Part shown: positions 52,964-63,089 of the stretch, one piece after another
How positions within the stretch are numbered: position 1 is the stretch's first letter
How the letters are laid out: every line of letters begins with the position of its first letter
Source: Elusimicrobia bacterium GWB2_63_22
GTDB lineage: Bacteria > Elusimicrobiota > Elusimicrobia > Elusimicrobiales > UBA9959
Assembly: GCA_001799735.1 (NCBI GenBank)
Contig: MGUA01000008.1
Location: forward strand, 7,175-71,174
DNA: 64,000 nt
Direction: 5' to 3'
Notes under the pieces: generated by a model
Databases searched by the model: none
What the model was told of the DNA's origin: nothing
The model's input: only the letters and a program-made list of their open reading frames with translations
Made by a program: the position numbers and the translations under genes

Positions 52964-54376
52964 ATGAACTTCAGGATCTACAACACGCTGACCAGGCAGA
53001 AAGAGATTTTTAAACCGATAAAAGACGGCGAAGTCGGCATCTACACCTGCGGCCCCACTGTCTACCATTACGCGCACATCGGCAACCTGCGCACCTACAT
53101 AACGGAAGACGCTTTTGTCCGCATGCTGAAATTTTTCAGCTGGAAGGTAAAGCGCGTGATGAACATCACCGACGTGGGCCACCTGACCTCGGACGCCGAC
53201 ACCGGCGAGGACAAGATGGAAGTGGGCGCCCGCCGCGAGGGTAAATCCGCCTGGGACGTGGCCAAATTTTACACCGAGGCTTTCTTCAAGGACTACAAGT
53301 CCCTCAACTGCCTGCCCGCCGACGTGCTGTGCCCCGCTACGGACTACATACAGGAAATGATAGACATGGTGCTGGCCCTCGAGAAGAAGGGCTACACCTA
53401 CAGCATAGCCGGCGACGGCGTTTATTTCGACACCTCCAAATTGCCGGATTACGGCAAGCTGGTGGGCAAGAGCCACATAGAAGGCATACAGGAAGGCGCG
53501 CGCGTGGAGGCCAATGCCGCCAAGCGCAACCCCGCCGACTTCTCCGTCTGGAAATTCGCCGCTCCCGGCGAGCAGCGCCAGATGGAATGGGCGTCCCCGT
53601 GGGGCAAAGGTTTTCCCGGCTGGCACATGGAGTGCTCGGCCATGGCGGTCAAACACCTCGGCGAGACCATAGACATACACTGGGGCGGCGAGGACCACGT
53701 GGCGGTGCACCACACCAACGAGATCGCCCAGAGCGAGGCGGCCAGCGGCAAGCCGTTCGCCCATTACTGGATGCACGCCCGGTTCCTGGTGATGGGGAAT
53801 CTCGGCAAGATGTCCAAGAGCTCCGGTGATTTTCTCACCACTTCTTCCCTGCCCGAGAAAGGCTACGACCCGCTGGCCTACCGCTACTACTGCATGCTGA
53901 CGCATTACCGCAAGCAGCTGGAATTTACCTGGGAAGCCGTGGAAGCGGCTGCCCGCGGCCTGGACGGCCTGCGCGCGCTGGCGCAGCGGGTGAAGGCCGA
54001 GGCCGGCGCCGCGCCGCAAGCCCTGGACCGCGAGGCCAAGCATTACAAAGACTTCTGCGAGGCCCTGGCCGACGACCTGAACATGCCTGCCGCGATGGCC
54101 GTGCTGTGGGAGACGCTTAAAGACAATGCCATCCCCGCGCCGCAGCGCCTGGCTTTCGCCCTGGCGGCCGAGGAAGTTACGGCCCTGGACCTTTTTAAAG
54201 TTAAAGAAGCCGGTGAACTGCCGGCCGAGCTTGCGGCGCTGATAAAGGACCGCGAGGCCGCCCGCGCGGCCAAGGACTGGAAGAAGTCCGACGAGCTGCG
54301 CAAGGCGCTTTCCGATAAAGGCGTGCTGATAGAGGACGCCCCCGGCGGCACCAAGTGGCGGCTGGTCCGCGGCTAG
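52964..54376 (+). CDS. cysS: Cysteine--tRNA ligase
   Basis: CGPTVYHYAHIGN (HIGH), KMSKS, WHMEC zinc site. Confidence 0.95.
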   Translation: MNFRIYNTLTRQKEIFKPIKDGEVGIYTCGPTVYHYAHIGNLRTYITEDAFVRMLKFFSWKVKRVMNITDVGHLTSDADTGEDKMEVGARREGKSAWDVAKFYTEAFFKDYKSLNCLPADVLCPATDYIQEMIDMVLALEKKGYTYSIAGDGVYFDTSKLPDYGKLVGKSHIEGIQEGARVEANAAKRNPADFSVWKFAAPGEQRQMEWASPWGKGFPGWHMECSAMAVKHLGETIDIHWGGEDHVAVHHTNEIAQSEAASGKPFAHYWMHARFLVMGNLGKMSKSSGDFLTTSSLPEKGYDPLAYRYYCMLTHYRKQLEFTWEAVEAAARGLDGLRALAQRVKAEAGAAPQALDREAKHYKDFCEALADDLNMPAAMAVLWETLKDNAIPAPQRLAFALAAEEVTALDLFKVKEAGELPAELAALIKDREAARAAKDWKKSDELRKALSDKGVLIEDAPGGTKWRLVRG

Positions 54377-54385
54377 GCTGCGGGC

Positions 54386-54415
54386 TTGTTAAAAAAGGGG
54401 CTTTTTTGGTAAAAT
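54386..54415 (+). promoter_or_regulatory. Candidate sigma70 promoter for tRNA-Gly
   Basis: TTGTTA, 18 nt, TAAAAT, ending about 20 nt before the tRNA 5' end. Confidence 0.3.
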
Positions 54416-54435
54416 AATCAGGTAGTTAGGCAAAT

Positions 54436-54509
54436 GCGGGCGTGGTTCAGTGGTAGAACGCGACCTTGCCAAGGTTGAGATGTGGGTTCGATTCCCATCG
54501 CCCGCTCCA
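54436..54509 (+). tRNA. tRNA-Gly (anticodon GCC), CCA encoded
   Basis: Acceptor GCGGGCG/CGCCCGC, D-arm GTTCAGTGGTAGAAC, anticodon loop CTTGCCAAG, T-arm GTGGGTTCGATTCCCAT, discriminator T plus CCA. Confidence 0.95.
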
Positions 54510-54522
54510 GATTTAATGTATT

Positions 54523-54550
54523 AGGCCATCCCTTCGGGATGGCCTTTTCC
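54523..54550 (+). terminator. Intrinsic terminator after tRNA-Gly
   Basis: AGGCCATCCC / TTCG / GGGATGGCCT followed by TTTCC. Confidence 0.7.
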
Positions 54551-54555
54551 ATTAT

Positions 54556-54778
54556 GCGGGCTATGGGAATCTTTCCTTATGGGGAGGCTCGCTGCCGCTC
54601 GCATGTCGCCCGCTAAGAAAACTAAATCCTGGGCTATGGGAATCATTCCTTACGGAAGAACGGTCGCTGCCGCTCCCTGTCGCCCGCTCAGAAAACCAAA
54701 TTCTGGGCGATGGGAATTATTCCTTATGAAGAGGCTAGCTGCCGCTCGCGGGCTTATGTTTCCTGCAAAACTTGCCGG
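54556..54778. repeat. Three tandem 73-74-bp repeats
   Basis: Units start at 54558, 54631 and 54705 (GGGC[TG]ATGGGAAT...). Conserved GCTGCCGCTC core. Units 1 and 2 end in TCGCCCGCT, identical to the tRNA-Gly 3' acceptor strand. Confidence 0.85.
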
Positions 54779-54874
54779 GATTTAAGTAAGCCAGGGAGGG
54801 GAGTGTGGTGCCGCGCTTGGAACCCGCACCGTGGACTTGCGGCATCTTCACAAATCCTTTTGCAAACATTTCCA

Positions 54875-54896
54875 TGCGAAAATATTTATTTTCACA
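54875..54896. promoter_or_regulatory. Dyad symmetry TGCGAAAATA-TT-TATTTTCACA, candidate enhancer-binding-protein site
   Basis: 9 of 10 positions are symmetric. Centred about 105 bp upstream of the sigma54 -24 element. AAAATATTTA recurs 20 bp downstream. Confidence 0.3.
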
Positions 54897-54989
54897 TAAA
54901 AATATTTAATCGAAGCGGATAAGCCAGAGCTGACAATGGGGAGAGCGGTTACGTGGGCTGGCAGGCCCAAAAGACGGCGCTCGGTGCGC

Positions 54990-55005
54990 TGGCATATAAA
55001 TTGCT
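54990..55005 (+). promoter_or_regulatory. Candidate sigma54 (-24/-12) promoter
   Basis: TGGCAT-ATAAA-TTGCT versus the consensus TGGCAC-N5-TTGCW, with correct spacing. 54 nt upstream of the peptide ATG. Confidence 0.55.
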
Positions 55006-55058
55006 CCGTTTGTGGTACAGGCGCAGCAAAAAGAATATTTAACGGAGGATAGAAGAAA

Positions 55059-55268
55059 ATGAATATAGATCTAGCGGTAAAATCCTTGAACATGACAGAC
55101 GGAGAAGTGCTGACCTTGGAAAAAGCCAAGAGTCGCATGGAATTCGAAGCCCTGCCGTTGATGGTGGCGGCCCACCTTCCGGAAGCGGCTTCCACAAGAT
55201 GTGGCACTTATAGCGATCCGGACGACCCCTGCCCGGATGATGATCCTCTCGACTACAAAGGGTCGTAA
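55059..55268 (+). CDS. 69-aa candidate RiPP precursor peptide (acidic Cys/Asp/Pro-rich C-terminus)
   Basis: GGAGGA 9 nt upstream of the ATG. Sequence ends ...EAASTRCGTYSDPDDPCPDDDPLDYKGS. Located directly upstream of a radical SAM/SPASM gene. Confidence 0.65.
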   Translation: MNIDLAVKSLNMTDGEVLTLEKAKSRMEFEALPLMVAAHLPEAASTRCGTYSDPDDPCPDDDPLDYKGS

Positions 55269-55288
55269 GCTAAAATCTTACCCAACTG

Positions 55289-55325
55289 CTGCCGGGGAAC
55301 CGAAGACAACTCGGTTTCCCGGCAG
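55289..55325 (+). promoter_or_regulatory. Hairpin after the peptide gene (possible attenuator or mRNA stabiliser)
   Basis: CTGCCGGGGAACCGA / AGACAAC / TCGGTTTCCCGGCAG (one mismatch) followed by TTTAC. Confidence 0.5.
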
Positions 55326-55433
55326 TTTACGCTTCCCCTGGAATCGAATATTTGTAAACAATGGCCCGCTACCGCTATAATAAGCACAAGCTCCGGCTGC
55401 GGACTGGGGCCCGGTTTTACAGGATAATGCAAG

Positions 55434-56846
55434 ATGAAATACTACATCAGCCGGTACTTGAACGCTATTGATCTTGGGGAAACTGTCCTTTTATTTAACG
55501 GGGTCAACGGCTGCCTGGACGAGGTTTCAGGAAAACCCGCCGCTATCCTTAAGTCCGGGAATTCTGAGCTGCTGACTTCCCTGACCGAAGGTGACCAGGC
55601 CGCGCTTCTGAAGCGCGGACATATAACCAGTCTCACCCCGGAGGAGGAACTGCTGCGCTTCAGGGAGTACGCCTCCGCCCTCCATAAAAAACTGGAAACT
55701 GATTCCCAGACAGGCGGCATCATGCTGCTGATGAGCTATAACTGCAATCTGGCCTGCAAATACTGCTATCAGCAGAAGCACAGGCCGCAGAAGTCCAAGG
55801 CGCTCATTACCCCGGAACTGGTCGAGGCTGTTTTTGAAAAACATATTTTCCAAATGATTCCCGGAGCGCGGCTCCAGGGTTCAGATATCTCTTTCTACGG
55901 CGGCGAACCTTTCCTGCCCGCGAACGAGCCCGCCATACGGAAAGCCCTGGAGTACGCGAAAAAATACGGGATGACGGCGTCAGCCATTTCCAACGCCACT
56001 AAAACCGACCTGATGCCGGACATTTTTGGGCCAGGCCCGGGGCAGGTCAGCCGCGTCCAGGTTTCATTGGACGGCAGCAGGGAACTGCACGACGTCTCCA
56101 GGGTGCCGCTATCCGGAGAAAGAACTTATGACAAGATCCTCGAGAATATTTCATTGCTTCTCGAGCGCAAAACAGCGGTCAGCATAAGGCTTAACCTGGA
56201 CCGGCGCACTCTGGCGTCCGTGCCGCAGCTTATCGCGGAACTTAAAGCGAAGAACATCCTCGGCAACAAATACGCGACCATCTGCGCCAGTCCGCTGCAC
56301 GACAATATCGCGGAGGTTGACGCCACGGACTTCATGGGCCTTGCCGAGTTATCCGCGCAGGTCTTCAGCCTCGGGATAGACCTGGAACATCCGGTAAGCC
56401 TTCACGCCAGCGATGCCAGTTACCTGCTCAGCCTGAAAGCCGGGATCGGCCTGACGCACACCTCGTTCTGCATGCAGACAATGCAGCGGACTCTGGTCCT
56501 GGATCCTTTCGGCGACCTGTACGCCTGCTTCGAGGAGGCCGGGTATCCGGAGTTCCGCGTAGGCCATGTTTCGCAAAACGGGGTGGAGTTTTTCCCCCTC
56601 CGCGATACATACAAGAGACGGCATATCGCGAACATGGCGGACTGTTTAAAATGCCCGGTAGCTCTTGCCTGCGGCGGCCAGTGCGGGGCGAGATGCCGCG
56701 CCAAGACCGGAGATCTGTTTAAGCCTCATTGCGGGGACATAAAACAGGTAATACTTGAAGGTCTGAAGCTGGCCTATCTCAAATGGCGGTCTGACCCGGA
56801 AAAAACCGCGCCGCGGTCCGGGCCTCCGGTTTCTACGCACGGATAA
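55434..56846 (+). CDS. Radical SAM/SPASM peptide-maturase-like enzyme with about 95-aa N-terminal extension
   Basis: CNLACKYC (CX3CX2C), FYGGEPFL, and SPASM motifs C...GDLYAC and CLKCPVALACGGQC (CX2CX5CX3C). Confidence 0.88.
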   Translation: MKYYISRYLNAIDLGETVLLFNGVNGCLDEVSGKPAAILKSGNSELLTSLTEGDQAALLKRGHITSLTPEEELLRFREYASALHKKLETDSQTGGIMLLMSYNCNLACKYCYQQKHRPQKSKALITPELVEAVFEKHIFQMIPGARLQGSDISFYGGEPFLPANEPAIRKALEYAKKYGMTASAISNATKTDLMPDIFGPGPGQVSRVQVSLDGSRELHDVSRVPLSGERTYDKILENISLLLERKTAVSIRLNLDRRTLASVPQLIAELKAKNILGNKYATICASPLHDNIAEVDATDFMGLAELSAQVFSLGIDLEHPVSLHASDASYLLSLKAGIGLTHTSFCMQTMQRTLVLDPFGDLYACFEEAGYPEFRVGHVSQNGVEFFPLRDTYKRRHIANMADCLKCPVALACGGQCGARCRAKTGDLFKPHCGDIKQVILEGLKLAYLKWRSDPEKTAPRSGPPVSTHG

Positions 56847-56849
56847 ACT

Positions 56850-57965
56850 ATGCCCGACAGCGATCCTTTGACATACAAGAACCATCTGAAGAGGGCTTAT
56901 TTCGTAAAGTACGGGGAAAAGGTCCTGGCGATAACCGACACCTCGTGCTACCACCTGGCCGAGGAGACGGCCCTGCTGGCTGCTAATTTGCCTGAAAAAG
57001 GCAAAAAAGAAGCCTACCTCTGTTTTTTGTCGGGGTTGGGGGTGACGAAGCCGGAAAAGATATTCGAAAAGCTTCTTGATATAGGGGCCTTGCACATAAA
57101 TGTCGCGCGCACCTGGAAAGATATAGCAGGCATGGTTATATCGCCGAAGCTGAGGCTGATCGGGCCGCAGCTCCAGGAAAAGGTGCTGGGCTCTATCGGA
57201 GTGGGAGCGGCCGGCCTTAAGAGATCGGCCGGAGCGCTCTGCTGGCTGTCTTTCCCGGGTTTGATCTGGGGAATTGCGCTGCTGTTTTCCGGCCCCGGCG
57301 CCTCTCAAGCTTCGCCGTCCGGCAATGCGAGCGGCTTAGCGGTGCTTCTCCTGGTCATAGCCAGCAGTCTGCTGCACGAGCTTGGCCACTCTTTCGCCGC
57401 CGCGGCTTCCGGCATAGGTTTCCGGCCCATTGGTTTTTCGGTCTATCTCATCTATCCGGTTTTTTATACCAATGTTTCAGGCATCGACAAACTTGACCTG
57501 AAAGCGAAGGCGTTCATAGATTGCGGCGGTTTTATCCCGCAATCCATTTTCCTGTTTTTCCTATTGATGGTCAGTTCCGCTTTCGGGAGCGCCGCCGCCG
57601 CGGAAGCCGCGCGCTGGATAGTCTATATAGTCCTTTTCAACCTTAATCCTTTATTGAGAACCGACGGGTACTGGCTGTATAAAGATATCTATGCAGAGCT
57701 GAAAGCCAGCCCCTGGGCCCGGGCCATGCATTACCTGTACCTGTCGGCGTTCTTTGTTTTCTCGGTGTACTTCCTGTGGTTCATCTATTCCAGGCTCGGC
57801 GGCTTCTGGGGCGAGCTGAAGATTCTGGCGCGTTCTCCGGAATATCTGTTCCAGGGCGGGTATCGCATACTGCTGGGGGCATATTTTATTTTTCTCGGCC
57901 TGACCGGCGGACTCCGCCGGTTCAAGGAAGGCCGCAAGGAATGGGACGAGCTCCGCAGGAGTTAA
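56850..57965 (+). CDS. M50 (site-2-protease-like) membrane zinc metalloprotease with N-terminal soluble domain
   Basis: HELGH in a TM segment plus the NLNPLLRTDG (NxxPxxxxDG) motif. Multiple TM helices. Starts 4 nt after the rSAM stop. Confidence 0.72.
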   Translation: MPDSDPLTYKNHLKRAYFVKYGEKVLAITDTSCYHLAEETALLAANLPEKGKKEAYLCFLSGLGVTKPEKIFEKLLDIGALHINVARTWKDIAGMVISPKLRLIGPQLQEKVLGSIGVGAAGLKRSAGALCWLSFPGLIWGIALLFSGPGASQASPSGNASGLAVLLLVIASSLLHELGHSFAAAASGIGFRPIGFSVYLIYPVFYTNVSGIDKLDLKAKAFIDCGGFIPQSIFLFFLLMVSSAFGSAAAAEAARWIVYIVLFNLNPLLRTDGYWLYKDIYAELKASPWARAMHYLYLSAFFVFSVYFLWFIYSRLGGFWGELKILARSPEYLFQGGYRILLGAYFIFLGLTGGLRRFKEGRKEWDELRRS

Positions 57966-57966
57966 C

Positions 57967-58821
57967 GTGGGCATGATGAAAAAACCTTTCAGGCGCGCTT
58001 TCATAGAGATAACCAACAGCTGCAACCTGGCTTGCGGTTTCTGCGCCTCGTCGTCGCGGCCCAAGACCGAGATGACGCTGGAGAATTTCGAGCGCGCGGC
58101 CGCGCAGGCCGGGGAGCTGGCGGCGGTGCTGTTCCTGCACCTGCTGGGCGAACCTTTCATGCATCCGCGGCTTCCTGAGCTGCTGGCGGCCTGCTCCCGC
58201 CTGGGGCTGAAGGTGAACCTGGTCACCAACGGCCTGCTGCTCAATAAGTTCGGGCCGGCTATTTTCACGGAGGGCTGCCTGAACCAAGTCTCCGTCTCCC
58301 TTCAGGCTTTAAGCGGATTGCCTCCCGAACGGCGCGCCGCGGAGCTGGGCGGCCTTATGCAGTTCGCGCTGCGGCGGCCGACGGGGCTTATAGTCAGTTT
58401 CAGGCTGCGCGGGAACCCGGACGACGCTTTTGTTAAGGATACTAAAGCGGCGGTGCTTGAAGCGCTGGCTGGCGGCGGCCCCGGCGAGAAAGTGCGCGAC
58501 GGGCTTAAGCTGCGCGAGGGCGTGTATCTGAATTTCGGCAGTATTTTCGACTGGCCCGGCGGCCCGGGCGGCAGGCCCAAGAAGGGCTGCCTGGGGCTGC
58601 GGCATCATTTCGGCATTTTAAGCGACGGGCGGGTGGTGCCCTGCTGCGCGGATGTCGACGGCGCCATGGCGCTGGGGAACGTCAACGAGAAACCGTTGGC
58701 GGAGATCCTTTCCGGCCCCAGGGCGCTTGCCCTGCGCGACAGCATAGCCGGCCGCACACCCATGCCACCCTTCTGCGCCTCCTGCGGCTTCACCGCTCCC
58801 GATATAGAACCCGCCCCGTGA
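57967..58821 (+). CDS. Second radical SAM enzyme (short, with C-terminal auxiliary Cys motifs)
   Basis: CNLACGFC (CX3CX2C), HLLGEPF, C-terminal C...GRVVPCC and FCASCG. GTG at 57967 or ATG at 57973/57976. Confidence 0.85.
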   Translation: MGMMKKPFRRAFIEITNSCNLACGFCASSSRPKTEMTLENFERAAAQAGELAAVLFLHLLGEPFMHPRLPELLAACSRLGLKVNLVTNGLLLNKFGPAIFTEGCLNQVSVSLQALSGLPPERRAAELGGLMQFALRRPTGLIVSFRLRGNPDDAFVKDTKAAVLEALAGGGPGEKVRDGLKLREGVYLNFGSIFDWPGGPGGRPKKGCLGLRHHFGILSDGRVVPCCADVDGAMALGNVNEKPLAEILSGPRALALRDSIAGRTPMPPFCASCGFTAPDIEPAP

Positions 58822-58832
58822 TCTGAATATGG

Positions 58833-58886
58833 AATCCGGGGACACAATACTTAATTCTGTCCAATTAAGTATTGTGTCCCCGGATT
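58833..58886. repeat. Perfect 24-bp inverted repeat with 6-nt spacer
   Basis: AATCCGGGGACACAATACTTAATT / CTGTCC / AATTAAGTATTGTGTCCCCGGATT, 12 nt after the last rSAM stop. No T-tract. Confidence 0.85.
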
Positions 58887-58945
58887 GCCACGAACGGGGG
58901 GCGGTTTGCTTTAAGGCGGGGGAAAGAGTAGAGTTAATAGACCCC

Positions 58946-59941
58946 ATGGCCAAACAACCTGAACTTATCAAAGAAATCGAGACGCTGCTTGCCGCGGACG
59001 GCAGGGTAGACACCGCGCTGTCGGTGGTGTTCTTCAAGGACCGGCTCGCCTATAAGCTCAAGCGGGAGATAAAGACCGGCTTTGTGGATTACTCCACGCT
59101 GCGCAAGAGAAAGGCCATGTGCGAGCGCGAGTTCCTTATAAACAAGAAGAACTCCCCGGACCTGTATATCGCCGTGGCCGCCGTGTGCCGCGGCCGGGAC
59201 GGCGCCTTAAAACTTTGGGGCGGCAAGGGCCCCCTGCCAGGAGTCCCGGTGGAATACCTGGTAGAGATGAACCGGTTCAGGGAGAAGGACCTGCTGAGCA
59301 ACCTGGCCAGGGCCGGGTCGCTGGACTCCGCAATTTCCGACGTGCTGATAGAGCGGGTGGCGGCCATGCACGCCGCGGCCCCGCGCGTTCCGGCCGGGAA
59401 CTACGACAAAAAATTCCGCAAGGCGGTGGACATCTCCATCCGCCAGTTCCGCGAATCCGCGGCCGGGGTGCTGCCGCCGGACGCCTGGAGGGACGTAAGC
59501 GCCAAGCTGCTGCGCGCCTTCGAGCGCTGCGCGCCCGTGCTGAAAAAAAGAGGGAAGAGTAACATAAAGGACTGCCACGGGGACCTGCACCTGGGCAACG
59601 TCTGCCTTTACGGCGGGCGGCCGCGCGTCTTCGACGCGGTGGAGTTCAATCCCGAATTCACGCACATCGACACGTTTTACGACCTGGCTTTCCTGCTGAT
59701 GGACTACCATCACCACAGGATGCCCAGGCAGGCCGAAAGGGCCGCCGATAAATACCTGGCCGCGGCGGGGCTGGACCGCGCGGATTTCGCGGCGCTGATG
59801 CCGCTCTACATGGGGCTGAGGGCCGTGATCCGCAGCAGCATTTCGGCCGCCGGCTCAAAATGCGTGCGGGGGGAACCGCAGCGGCGCTTAAGGGCGGAAG
59901 CCGTGCGCTACCATGGAGAGGCCCTGGAGTACCTGGAGTAG
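58946..59941 (+). CDS. APH-fold phosphotransferase family protein
   Basis: The ATG at 58946 avoids the palindrome. VFFKDRLAYKLKR, CHGDLHLGNV, FDAVEFNPEFTHIDTFYDLAFLLMD. Confidence 0.68.
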   Translation: MAKQPELIKEIETLLAADGRVDTALSVVFFKDRLAYKLKREIKTGFVDYSTLRKRKAMCEREFLINKKNSPDLYIAVAAVCRGRDGALKLWGGKGPLPGVPVEYLVEMNRFREKDLLSNLARAGSLDSAISDVLIERVAAMHAAAPRVPAGNYDKKFRKAVDISIRQFRESAAGVLPPDAWRDVSAKLLRAFERCAPVLKKRGKSNIKDCHGDLHLGNVCLYGGRPRVFDAVEFNPEFTHIDTFYDLAFLLMDYHHHRMPRQAERAADKYLAAAGLDRADFAALMPLYMGLRAVIRSSISAAGSKCVRGEPQRRLRAEAVRYHGEALEYLE

Positions 59942-59987: not shown

Positions 59988-60004
59988 GCTTTATGCGACC
60001 GCAG

Positions 60005-60448
60005 CTATTGCGGCAGGGCGGAGACGGACAGCCAGTAGCGCCCGAACTGGCAGATCACGTCCTTGAAGCATTCGAAACTGGCCGGCTTGGTGATAAAAGA
60101 GGCGGCGCCGTATTCGTAGCTGCGGGTTATGTCCTCGCTGGAGGAGGAGGTGGTCAGCATGGTGACCGGGATCTTTTTGAACAGCGGGTCGGCCTTGAGC
60201 CGGCGGAGCAGCGCGAAGCCGTCCATCATCGGCAGGCTGATGTCCAGCAGCATCAGGTCGGGCATCACGGGCTTCCGGCCCGCATACTTGCCCCGGCAAT
60301 GCAGGTAGTCCAGCGCTTCGGCCGCGTCGGTTACGGTGGCGAGGGTGTGCTTGAACCCCATGGAGGCGAAAACCTTTTTCGCCATAAGGGTGTCGTCTTC
60401 GCTGTCATCCACCAGCAGGATCTTGAGGCCTGAATAATAAATACCCAT
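60005..60448 (-). CDS. Stand-alone response-regulator receiver domain
   Basis: ILLVDDSEDD, the phospho-acceptor context LMLLDISLPMMDG, and TMLTTS. Confidence 0.85.
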   Translation of the reverse strand: MGIYYSGLKILLVDDSEDDTLMAKKVFASMGFKHTLATVTDAAEALDYLHCRGKYAGRKPVMPDLMLLDISLPMMDGFALLRRLKADPLFKKIPVTMLTTSSSSEDITRSYEYGAASFITKPASFECFKDVICQFGRYWLSVSALPQ

Positions 60449-60734
60449 ATTCCCTCCCCCGGTATAGAAATAACCTTGCGGCTAAACGACCAAGCCTTTG
60501 CCTGTCGTTACAGCCGCTCCCCCCTCGCCATAATATAGCAGACCTATTGGATATATCAAGGTTATCTTCAGTACATATAGATTCCCCGATATTACGCAGG
60601 GCGGCCGCCGCCTCCGGTCCTAAGGGCCTAGGCCCTGGGGCTGCCAAGGCCTACGCCGGCATAGGCATTAAAACAGGGCCCCGTTGGGTACTTGGCCTCT
60701 TATGAAACCGGTCCCTTTGCGCTACACTAGAGTA

Positions 60735-63035
60735 ATGACCCATACCACTTCCACCTCCAAAGCCTTCGCGGTAGTTTTCTTCTCCCTGGTCTGCGCCCTT
60801 CAGGCGCCCGCCTACTCGGCAGAGTTCTCCACTTATTTTGACGGCACCAATAAAGCCTCCATGGCCGAGCTGGTCGGCGGCCTGCGCGCGGAAGCCGCCG
60901 GCGCGACGGACCCCAAAGCCCCGGCTCCCCAGCCCGCCCAGCCTACCGCCCCCGGCAACAACGAACTCCTCCATTTCTGGGAAGACCTCAAGAGCGACGT
61001 GTTCGACGACATTTGTAAGGACGTGGAGATCCCGCTGGAACAGGGTTTCGACCTCGGCGATATCGCCGGCATCGAAGGCAAGTTCAAGCGCTACATGAAG
61101 CAGTTCCCCGACAACAAGATAGCCGTGATAGACGAAGTCGGCGTCAAGCTGGACGCGGGTCATACCTTTACCGACCTCTTCGACGTGAACGGCAACACTT
61201 TCAATATCGGCCTCTCCGGCGGCCTGGAAGGCAAATCGGTGGTGGTGCGCAAGACCAACGAGGACAAGTACTGCAAGAACCTGCTGAAGCTGGCCGACCT
61301 GCGCAAGGTGAAAACCATCCTGCCCGTCAACGCCAAGCGCATCGGCGAGATGCAGGTCAACGAGATCTGGAAGTTCCCCGCCCGCCTGCACATGGGCGTC
61401 AGCGGCGGCCTGGGCTACCCCGTGCAGCCCTGGCTCTCCATCGCCTTCTCGCTGGGCACCTCCAAAGAGATGAAGCCCTCCGTCACCCTTTTCAAGATGG
61501 ACGAGAGCAAGATCCGCATGCGCATCCGCCTGGACCGCATCACCGTCAAGAGCGCGGGCGCCTCCGTGGGCACCTCGTTCGACGCGGGCATGATCGGCCT
61601 GCCCGAGGCCGAGGGGTTCCTGATGAAGGAACTCAACAAGACCCTGGTGAAGGAATTTAACAAGTACATCGCGCTCAAGTTCGGCCTCTCCACCAGCCGC
61701 GCCAAGGGCCAGAAGATCCTGCTCGAATTCATCATCGACGCCAAGGACCCGGAGCAGGTGGCCAAGCTGGTCGACTTCCTCAAGGGCGACCTGGGCATCA
61801 TCAGGAAACTCATCCAGATGGGCGTGCGCTTTAACGACTTCTCCTCTCTGGACGACACCGCCGCCGGCCAGCAGGCCCTCAACAGCGTGTCCGACGTGGC
61901 CGCCAGCGGCCTGGGGCTCAACTCCACCTTCGCCGGCTCCAACCACTTCAATAGCACCTCCCACGCCATGAACATCGTGCTGCCCGTGGTGCTGCACCGC
62001 GAGTCCAATAACGGCCAGCGCTACGACCGCTACCAGGTCTCCGGCAGCGAGCAGGTGCTGCACGTGCATAACGCCTCCAAGAACGAGTCGGTCAGCAACA
62101 TCAACGTGCCCTTCATCGGCAAGATCTTCAAGCACAACACCAACCAGAACTTCTACGTGGTCAACTACGAGGACAAGAACGGCGCCGTGTCCGACGGGGC
62201 CGTGGTCTACCAGCGCTACGAAGGCTACATCAAGCACAACGAGACCGACTCCCGCGGCATGGTCCGGAGCATGAACGAGATCCTCAAGTTCGCCGGCACC
62301 CAGGGCGACGGCGTCAACAACGACTTCACCATAGACGTGGACGCCATGTTCCCGCACCTCGCCGCCGAGGACGCCAACCCTTCCGACACCGACATGGACG
62401 GCAACCCCGTGCGCGACACCCGCCGCTACAAGTCGGCGCTGATGTCCTTCTCCCTGGTATTTACCAGGGAGGCCGTGCGCGACATCATAGCCGCCCCCTC
62501 CGTGCTCATCATGAAGGCCGTCGCCAACGTGATGGAGGGCCTGGACCGCGAGATCATCAGCAAGGTGCAGCACCTCTTCAAGATCGGCAATAACGGCAAG
62601 GTGGATTACGACTGGAAGGCCGCCAGCAAGCTCCTGCGCGACTACCAGCGCGACGGCGAGGACGCCTTCGACCCGCTCTCCGTGGTCAACTCCTTCTGCT
62701 CCAACGTGGCCGCCATCATCTCCGACATCGCCAGCGTGCGCAACATAGGCGACCAGAAAGAAAAATCCGAGCGCCTGTCCCGGGTGCTGGCCGGCAAAGG
62801 CAAGAGCGGCCTGGGCTACGAAGGCCTGATGCAGGTGCTGATACAGCTGGTGGACGTGAAGGATATCTACGCCAGCCTCAACGTGCAGACCGACAAGCGC
62901 ATCAAGGGCGAAGAGAATATCGCCAACAGCTACAACATCTACAACACCAATCTGCAGGCCGGCTACGGCGCGCAGCTGGGCAACGCCAACTCCATCCGCG
63001 ACCGCTTCTCCGACCCCTCGGTGCTGAGCGACTAA
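60735..63035 (+). CDS. Large secreted protein of unknown function
   Basis: Signal peptide MTHTTSTSKAFAVVFFSLVCALQAPAYS-AE (alternative starts at 60684 and 60702). Normal amino-acid composition, unlike the 800-aa antisense ORF. Followed by a terminator. Confidence 0.6.
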   Translation: MTHTTSTSKAFAVVFFSLVCALQAPAYSAEFSTYFDGTNKASMAELVGGLRAEAAGATDPKAPAPQPAQPTAPGNNELLHFWEDLKSDVFDDICKDVEIPLEQGFDLGDIAGIEGKFKRYMKQFPDNKIAVIDEVGVKLDAGHTFTDLFDVNGNTFNIGLSGGLEGKSVVVRKTNEDKYCKNLLKLADLRKVKTILPVNAKRIGEMQVNEIWKFPARLHMGVSGGLGYPVQPWLSIAFSLGTSKEMKPSVTLFKMDESKIRMRIRLDRITVKSAGASVGTSFDAGMIGLPEAEGFLMKELNKTLVKEFNKYIALKFGLSTSRAKGQKILLEFIIDAKDPEQVAKLVDFLKGDLGIIRKLIQMGVRFNDFSSLDDTAAGQQALNSVSDVAASGLGLNSTFAGSNHFNSTSHAMNIVLPVVLHRESNNGQRYDRYQVSGSEQVLHVHNASKNESVSNINVPFIGKIFKHNTNQNFYVVNYEDKNGAVSDGAVVYQRYEGYIKHNETDSRGMVRSMNEILKFAGTQGDGVNNDFTIDVDAMFPHLAAEDANPSDTDMDGNPVRDTRRYKSALMSFSLVFTREAVRDIIAAPSVLIMKAVANVMEGLDREIISKVQHLFKIGNNGKVDYDWKAASKLLRDYQRDGEDAFDPLSVVNSFCSNVAAIISDIASVRNIGDQKEKSERLSRVLAGKGKSGLGYEGLMQVLIQLVDVKDIYASLNVQTDKRIKGEENIANSYNIYNTNLQAGYGAQLGNANSIRDRFSDPSVLSD

Positions 63036-63051
63036 GCAGCTGCTGAAGCGC

Positions 63052-63089
63052 AAAAAAAGCCCCCGGCTTCGGCCGGGGGCTTTTTTTTG
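63052..63089. terminator. Bidirectional intrinsic terminator
   Basis: A7-GCCCCCGGC / TTCG / GCCGGGGGC-T8. Confidence 0.8.

Follow-up and report, generated by a model that had tools for sequence, protein, structure and literature searches.

A candidate cysteine-rich RiPP precursor and its radical SAM/SPASM cassette in Elusimicrobia bacterium GWB2_63_22

Is a 69-codon open reading frame (ORF) of Elusimicrobia bacterium GWB2_63_22 the precursor gene of a ribosomally made and post-translationally modified peptide (RiPP), and what would the radical S-adenosylmethionine (SAM) enzyme encoded behind it do to the product? The ORF lies at positions 55059-55268 of the 64,000-nucleotide stretch of contig MGUA01000008.1 that was analyzed here and is called the window. 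A preliminary description of the peptide had proposed a leader followed by a core with two Cys residues, and a sulfur-to-carbon crosslink analogous to the Cys-to-Asp thioethers made by PapB. The translation of the ORF agrees exactly with the one quoted there, and Cys48 and Cys58 do lie in a tail rich in Asp and Pro. The peptide is very probably a genuine RiPP precursor, and it belongs to a previously uncurated RiPP family of groundwater Elusimicrobia. The best explanation, which we regard as somewhat probable, is that it is the single precursor of an Elusimicrobia RiPP cassette, that its two Cys residues would be closed into thioether rings by the neighboring maturase, here called rSAM1, and that an M50-like protease would remove the leader. 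The features that this explanation involves are the following.

54990-55005, + strand: sigma54-type -24/-12 element TGGCAT-ATAAA-TTGCT, 69 nt 5' of the precursor ATG
55044-55049, + strand: Shine-Dalgarno sequence GGAGGA, 9 nt 5' of the precursor ATG, read from the sequence
55059-55268, + strand: precursor ORF, 69 aa, with start ATG at 55059 and stop at 55266-55268
55059-55163, + strand: leader, residues 1-35, MNIDLAVKSLNMTDGEVLTLEKAKSRMEFEALPLM, recognized by conservation in 31 homologs and the codon-position pattern
55164-55268, + strand: variable linker and core, residues 36-69, VAAHLPEAASTRCGTYSDPDDPCPDDDPLDYKGS, and stop, recognized by the collapse of conservation after PLM
55434-56846, + strand: rSAM1, peptide maturase of 470 aa with RiPP recognition element (RRE), radical SAM and SPASM domains (Pfam Radical_SAM, Fer4_12)
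56850-57965, + strand: M50/site-2-protease-like polytopic HExxH metalloprotease, 371 aa, the presumed leader peptidase

The precursor peptide and its relatives

ORFs of at least 40 aa number 100 in 16 kb, and a length of 69 codons is uninformative in this GC-rich window, so the reality of the gene had to rest on other evidence. A word-indexed search with the peptide returned two relatives and a profile of the leader returned 31 homologs. An exhaustive HMMER profile search of 1.84 billion cluster representatives gave 57 matches at E<1e-3, of which 43 reached E<1e-10; the 57 are representatives at 50% identity and include two spurious large repeat proteins. These two, P0190 and P0199, were matched by the leader profile by chance, P0190 being a Big-like repeat with LTIEKASQAITFEAL. 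With uncalled copies added by six-frame scans of related loci, about 90 distinct precursor relatives of 51-144 aa were collected from Elusimicrobia metagenome-assembled genomes (MAGs) and metagenomes. Searches of nine precursors against NCBIfam and of three against Pfam gave nothing meaningful at E up to 10. All homologs with a named source come from Elusimicrobia MAGs, and six genome records comprise four Elusimicrobia MAGs, one record labeled Hydrogenedentota and one that is unclassified; so far, the precursor family is restricted to Elusimicrobia.

Over approximately residues 1-35 the relatives share the leader consensus M..x..I.KSLN[ML]T.GE[AV]LTLEKA.DRMEFEALPL[ML], in which N11, L18, T19, L20, E21, R26, E28, F29 and E30 are invariant among the 31 homologs. 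Pairwise differences at codon positions 1:2:3 amount to 503:258:1044 in a 24-codon leader block with 13 distinct DNA versions, and in these versions the invariant residues are spelled with two to four synonymous codons. This combination argues that the leader block is under purifying selection at the protein level. A strain variant from another groundwater run changes the ORF only by a synonymous substitution at Thr13. Homologs, codon-position pattern and strain variant together speak for a real gene. Its leader/core layout is likewise real, with a conserved leader and a variable core; the boundary, however, falls after about residue 35, at PLM, and not near residue 45.

Beyond PLM, Cys is the sole recurring residue across the family. 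The cores are hypervariable (89 distinct cores in about 70 clusters), and most relatives have cores rich in Asn, Thr, Tyr and Gly rather than Asp. No core among the 89 distinct ones has fewer than two Cys residues, the range being 2-12, and Cys makes up 14.7% of core residues. Among 70 non-redundant cores the Cys count is odd in 37 and even in 33; a scaffold built on disulfides alone would not be expected to give so balanced a split. The window peptide forms a subgroup with the relatives P0002, P0015 and P0007, in whose four members the only invariant positions after the leader are A44, C48, Y51, C58 and P59. A looser relative of this subgroup, P0187, contains C-R-S-Y-D-P-G-C-D-A-D.

Some observations on other members of the family may be added. 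Different precursors can occur in tandem, up to five at locus L018 (2567-7547), where some lie 3' of the protease gene, and up to four at L013 (7330-8536). C-terminal modules recur, including CDC.GPVGYI.CHPY[KR], CPSKG[LM]A, CWDWW and Pro-rich tails. Very long cores of about 80 aa with 12 Cys were found at L002 (about 1196-1640), L003 and L006 (about 1046-1474). The long-core precursors of these three loci have no ATG near the leader, their frame being open far upstream and overlapping the end of the preceding gene, and the three loci are without the sigma54 element.

One could also suppose that the ORF is no substrate but the remnant of a gene that has decayed or lost its function, the cassette being inactive in this organism. 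Only one precursor, and one with the lowest Cys count, is present in the window, which is also missing the TPR lipoprotein and DUF4097 genes of most sister loci; the locus was found in DNA runs only, and metatranscriptomes of the same samples share 0 words with it. However, the leader, the ribosome-binding site, the sigma54 element and the rSAM1 and M50 genes are all intact, and three other metagenomic relatives keep the C-x-x-Y...C-P architecture. The locus, with its peptide, is identical on 24 contigs from groundwater and sediment metagenomes representing several samples, and the strain variant's only change to the ORF is the silent one mentioned above. We consider decay very improbable.

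The maturase and the predicted cross-links

The precursor lies 165 nt upstream of rSAM1 in the same orientation, and the same arrangement occurs in 15 related loci. In rSAM1 the CX3CX2C motif corresponds to C104/C108/C111, and a seven-Cys SPASM domain is formed by C346, C365, C404, C407, C413, C417 and C433 (C346-x13-G-x4-C365, C404-x2-C-x5-C-x3-C417, C433). Both sets are invariant in six orthologs, which show identities of 54-69% over the whole protein and 67-75% over the best segment. No eighth invariant SPASM Cys was found among these orthologs, and this absence would be compatible with an open Aux I site.

Against solved structures, a profile of the orthologs matched CteB best (5WGG/5WHY, 2.9e-16), followed by TigE (8VPO, 1.2e-12), anSME (~4e-12) and ChlB (4e-9). 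Residues 5-191 of rSAM1 aligned with residues 8-215 of TigE, and the crystallographic RRE of TigE (residues 3-85) is within the aligned stretch. The RRE assignment of rSAM1 is based on this homology; a Pfam RRE/PqqD search with its first 95 residues gave no match. Residues near the catalytic site of CteB have been profiled as F112, F152, T186, S210, H363 and Q364 (PMC10288494). Their equivalents in rSAM1 are Y112, Y155, I185/S186 (where the alignment is uncertain), S211, F366 and E367, that is, one identical and two conservative, with CteB as the sole reference.

Among NCBIfam models, rSAM1 scored 110 bits with TIGR04463, 102 with PapB, 100 with CefB and 99 each with the geopeptide maturase and FlmE/OhkG, and then 88 with the nif11 maturase, 83 with the SCIFF maturase, 78 with anSME, 77 with DynA and 71 with QhpD. 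Scores three- to five-fold below the cut-offs point to a separate clade of RiPP SPASM maturases. The nearest characterized neighbors of rSAM1 are mostly enzymes that form Cys thioethers (CteB, PapB, QhpD and the SCIFF maturase), and to this extent the proposal of a sulfur-to-carbon crosslink is supported. Thioether chemistry at Cys48 and Cys58 appears to us about evenly balanced, with a slight leaning in its favor.

The partner of each Cys is a separate question. One possibility is a freyrasin-type ranthipeptide with links of the PapB or QhpD style to Asp beta-carbons, Cys48 to Asp53 and Cys58 to Asp60-62. The 22 C-terminal residues of the precursor hold seven Asp and five Pro; C48-GTYS-D53 is C-x4-D, and C58-P-D60-D61-D62 contains C-x3-D (C58...D62). 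PapB makes thioethers of Cys with Asp or Glu and accepts Cys-Xn-Asp with n = 0-6 (PMC9413430), so that spacing neither helps nor hurts the Asp hypothesis; the reservation made earlier, that the spacing in this peptide differs from that of PapB substrates, is thus moot. PapB is also among the top NCBIfam matches of rSAM1. Within the window subgroup both Cys residues are invariant and acidic residues follow them, at Cys2+4 in four of four members (D, D, E, E) and at Cys1+5 in three of four (D, D, D, W).

A Cys/Asp pattern does not characterize the family as a whole. With shuffling within each core as the control, C-x3-[DE] occurs in 28 of the 70 non-redundant cores against 33.3 expected (z = -1.3) and C-x4-[DE] in 31 against 32.3, that is, at or below chance. 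Enrichment of acidic residues precedes Cys and does not follow it, being confined to -1 (z = 5.8) and -2 (z = 4.0). Enzymes at 63-69% identity serve cores with few or no Asp (for example, C.CN..SYTVC.PNK), the Cys1+5 residue of P0007 is Trp, and the PapB model gave 102 bits against a cut-off of 340. Links specifically to Asp therefore seem unlikely to us, even though rSAM1 resembles thioether formers in general.

The same comparison draws attention to position Cys +3, which is enriched in Tyr (z = 9.1), Lys (8.6), Asn (6.9), Phe (4.1) and Asp (3.1). C..Y was found in 37 of 70 cores against 14.0 expected, a number equaled in 0 of 1000 shuffles, and C..[YFW] in 45 of 70 against 23.8. C-x-x-Tyr is the strongest family-wide core signal. 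The window precursor has it as C48-G-T-Y51, with Cys48 encoded by TGT at 55200-55202 and Tyr51 by the codon at 55209-55211; Cys58 is TGC at 55230-55232.

A conserved Tyr would also suit a modification by rSAM1 other than a thioether, such as a C-C or C-O cross-link at Tyr51, epimerization like that of YydG/YydH, or oxidation of Cys, the Cys pair then serving in a disulfide or in metal binding. The gene order of precursor, radical SAM enzyme and M50-like protease copies yydFGH, the best NCBIfam match of the protease is YydH/LiaK (35 bits), the two Cys of the window peptide make an even number, and the anSME, DynA, cyclophane and TigE families match rSAM1 at similar levels. Against this stand the universality of Cys alone among core residues, its odd counts, and the higher rank of the thioether-forming families and CteB. 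The YydH match reaches 35 of the 225 bits of its cut-off, no YydG-type model is among the 25 best matches of rSAM1, and rSAM1 is without the GYW motif of cyclopropyl synthases. We regard a non-thioether modification as rather doubtful.

Several points weigh against the thioether explanation itself. SPASM enzymes also make C-C, C-O and C-N cross-links and carry out epimerization and oxidation. The scores of rSAM1 are below the cut-off of every curated family, so similarity does not fix its reaction, and a single-sequence AlphaFold2 model of the enzyme was unusable (pLDDT 38, pTM 0.29). Shared modules (CHPY[KR], C.CKGPVGY, C.CN..SYT.C) account for some of the C-x-x-Y/K/N signal, whose events are thus not all independent. 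The window subgroup has only four members, and a metagenome scan for more gave five loci, all of other subgroups. To these may be added the absence of the locus from the metatranscriptomes and of a transporter from the window cassette.

For the thioether explanation, which we still prefer, the following course of events can be proposed. Transcription would start from the sigma54-type promoter, whose sequence is conserved across loci, and the leader (residues ~1-35) would be bound by the N-terminal RRE of rSAM1, by homology with known enzymes. rSAM1 would then abstract a hydrogen atom from an acceptor and join the thiols of Cys48 and Cys58 to carbons a few residues downstream, closing two small rings through thioether bonds. 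As acceptor, Tyr51 is the candidate for Cys48 (C-x-x-Y), and Asp61 or Asp62 for Cys58 (C-x2/3-D, a position that is acidic in the subgroup). The M50-like membrane metalloprotease may cut the leader at or after PLM, to judge from the conserved gene order and the HExxH and NPxxxxD motifs. The mature product would have about 22-34 residues, be strongly acidic, Pro-rich and doubly bridged, and be released, possibly as a signal.

The gene cassette, its regulation and its surroundings

The conserved parts of the cassette are a sigma54-type -24/-12 promoter, one to five tandem precursors, an enzyme with RRE, radical SAM and SPASM domains, and an M50-like protease. Precursor(s), rSAM1 and M50 gene form a trio in the window and in L001, L004, L007, L008, L012, L013, L017 and L018; the trio is kept in all eight other loci whose sequence extends past rSAM1, L006 excepted. 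HExxH and NPxxxxD are the two signature motifs of site-2 proteases, family M50, and both segments of the protease, H176-E-L-G-H180 and N264-L-N-P-x-x-R-T-D272, are invariant. Its matches are weak: Peptidase_M50, YydH/LiaK and the daptide protease, with the NCBIfam models among them well below cut-off. Sister loci often have a TPR lipoprotein of ~245 aa 5' of rSAM1 and a DUF4097 protein 3' of the protease, both of which the window is without.

The promoter pattern TGGCAYN5TTGCW has a single match on both strands of the window, with 0.10 expected, and the element there is a perfect one. Of 15 related loci, 12 have the same element 5' of their first precursor, at 47-77 nt from the ATG in 11 and at 123 nt in L017; loci with the element include L004, L007, L008, L012 and L017-L023. 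At L019 (652-5750) and L020 (1308-5904), genes for an SBP_bac_5 (peptide-binding) protein, a histidine kinase and a divergent sigma54-activator response regulator are directly 5' of the precursors. L007 (4463-8480) and L008 (1961-5035) have an SBP_bac_5 protein and a histidine kinase upstream of the precursors, and L018 has a sigma54 activator downstream. No GAFTGA-type activator was found in the window, where the only response regulator is a receiver-only protein on the opposite strand at 60005-60448. The modules of the related loci suggest a peptide-sensing autoregulatory loop, in which the product could have a signaling role.

A bolder reading joins this regulation to the core statistics. 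The defining cross-link would be a new bridge from Cys(i) to residue (i+3), with Cys-x-x-Tyr as the archetype, made by a distinct radical SAM/SPASM clade, and the product would be a secreted signal under sigma54 regulation that the SBP_bac_5, histidine kinase and NtrC-type modules sense. Such a bridge may link sulfur to the side chain or alpha carbon of Tyr in a four-residue ring, at C48-G-T-Y51 here and at CHPY[KR] and C[RG][TL]Y elsewhere. We hold this reading in full to be quite unlikely, and proof of the C-x-x-Tyr bridge or of the signaling loop would make the locus much more interesting.

Two further observations concern these loci. A weak YcaO-like gene is also present in L020 and L008. 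Small ORFs without leader similarity stand behind a sigma54 element in L008 (14476-14693, 46 aa) and L013 (13957-14150, 38 aa, with C-R-C), and they may encode further peptides of the same regulon.

The order in the window is tRNA-Gly(GCC), three repeats of ~74 nt, precursor, 16-bp hairpin, rSAM1, M50-like protease, a second radical SAM gene (rSAM2) and a kinase gene. The elements not yet described are these.

54436-54509, + strand: tRNA-Gly(GCC), found by ARAGORN and Rfam
54558-54780, + strand: three direct repeats of ~74 nt, two of which carry the tRNA 3'-end-like 11-mer TGTCGCCCGCT
55288-55326, + strand: GC-rich RNA hairpin of 16 bp between the precursor and maturase genes, from folding
57967-58821, + strand: rSAM2, a short radical SAM/SPASM protein of 284 aa, adjacent and co-oriented
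58829-59941, + strand: APH-like kinase, adjacent and co-oriented

The hairpin has a folding energy of -32.4 kcal/mol (z = -4.45), and 0 of 200 shuffles were as stable. It is not a canonical terminator because only UUUA comes after it; its possible roles are attenuation, partial termination or stabilization of the transcript. An Rfam scan of 54300-55500 found nothing but the tRNA. Positions 54400-57800 have a GC content of 0.50-0.58 and the flanks one of 0.60-0.66, with the jump exactly at the junction of the M50 and rSAM2 genes. The tRNA and the repeats form the left edge of this low-GC segment. Low GC, the tRNA and repeats bearing copies of the tRNA 3' end together give the three-gene cassette the look of an island integrated beside tRNA-Gly.

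rSAM2 and the kinase are probably not members of the cassette: they were found in none of the other precursor loci, the contexts of rSAM2 elsewhere are unrelated, and GC returns to the flank level at their genes. More than 150 homologs of rSAM2 were found at 51-88% identity, those with a named source all from Elusimicrobia; elsewhere the gene adjoins MltA, lactamase_B and other genes (including at L014-L016), with no precursor nearby. Proteins of this kind have a truncated SPASM/twitch-like domain and 277-284 aa, and they are not linked to RiPPs.

Other parts of the surroundings can be noted briefly. At L005 (5511-6001) and L001 (5153-5960) a SAM-methyltransferase-like gene replaces the precursor/TPR region 5' of rSAM1, and at L005 the TPR gene is reduced to its last ~20 codons; both cassettes are rearranged and probably orphaned. 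Downstream in the window, a 146-aa ORF at 59993-60433 (+ strand) was rejected as a gene, being the shadow of the minus-strand receiver-only response regulator (Pfam Response_reg, 3.2e-19). Mirror ORFs of ~780-800 aa occupy both strands at 60684-63035 (+) and 60651-63053 (-). Gene callers choose the + strand (766-777 aa), the product of which has no Pfam or NCBIfam match, and a 757-aa gene beside pyrB recurs in L012, which suggests conserved synteny for the region.

Novelty and comparison with known systems

Elusimicrobia are almost uncultured. Our literature search found no link between them and RiPPs, SPASM maturases or precursor peptides; the sole text naming both Elusimicrobia and ranthipeptide was an unrelated sediment survey, and a search on FlmE/OhkG gave nothing relevant. 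The present analysis defines a family by about 90 distinct precursors, a recognizable leader, a dedicated radical SAM/SPASM clade, a conserved sigma54 promoter and a presumed intramembrane protease for the leader. Peptide-stapling biocatalysis as developed with PapB could draw on its natural variants as substrates of a single enzyme scaffold; the family also allows control of a RiPP by sigma54 and a two-component system to be tested, and it may hold a new Cys-x-x-Tyr linkage. The window peptide, as the smallest member with two Cys, is the simplest substrate for solving the chemistry.

By its genes, the cassette appears to work like a sactipeptide or ranthipeptide cassette and to be of the radical SAM/SPASM-modified, Cys-rich RiPP kind, with the presumed intramembrane leader protease, the sigma54 control and the hypervariable multi-precursor loci as its likely distinctive features. 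PapA/PapB, the freyrasin system, is alike in having a leader with a Cys-containing core, a maturase with RRE, radical SAM and SPASM domains, and Cys followed by Asp within n = 0-6. It differs in that rSAM1 scores 102.4 bits against the NF047865 cut-off of 340, the leaders are unrelated and the window cassette includes an M50 protease; against the six regular C-x3-D/E repeats of PapA, the window peptide has two Cys, and C-x3-[DE] is not enriched in its family. The SCIFF system of CteB/ScfB shares a Cys-rich C-terminal core, an N-terminal RRE and a two-cluster SPASM domain, and CteB is the closest solved structure to rSAM1 (2.9e-16). Yet rSAM1 reaches 83.3 bits against the TIGR03974 cut-off of 425, and nine precursors are without an NCBIfam match at E up to 10. 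SCIFF precursors have a conserved core and occur once per genome, while the window family combines a conserved leader with a hypervariable core and has one to five precursors per locus.

TIGR04463 (rSAM_vs_C_rich) is the best-scoring curated family for rSAM1 and its model name points to Cys-rich substrates, but the 110 bits are far below the cut-off of 525. To our knowledge the chemistry of this family is uncharacterized, and the match thus does not inform the mechanism. The YydF/YydG/YydH epipeptide system has the same order of small precursor, radical SAM/SPASM-type enzyme and polytopic HExxH membrane protease, and YydH/LiaK is the best match of the protease. That match, however, is 35 against 225 bits, rSAM1 is not YydG-like and the window cassette has no ABC transporter; the cores of the window family are Cys-rich, whereas epimerization needs no Cys. 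The cyclopropylglycine synthases TigE and TvgB (8VPO) supply the second-best structure, with an alignment that spans the N-terminal RRE and the start of the radical SAM barrel. In these synthases GYW is strictly conserved before the SPASM domain (PMC10878394), whereas it is absent from rSAM1 and five aligned homologs, and the substrates of the window family are without Val/Ile repeats of the TVGG/TIGSVS type.

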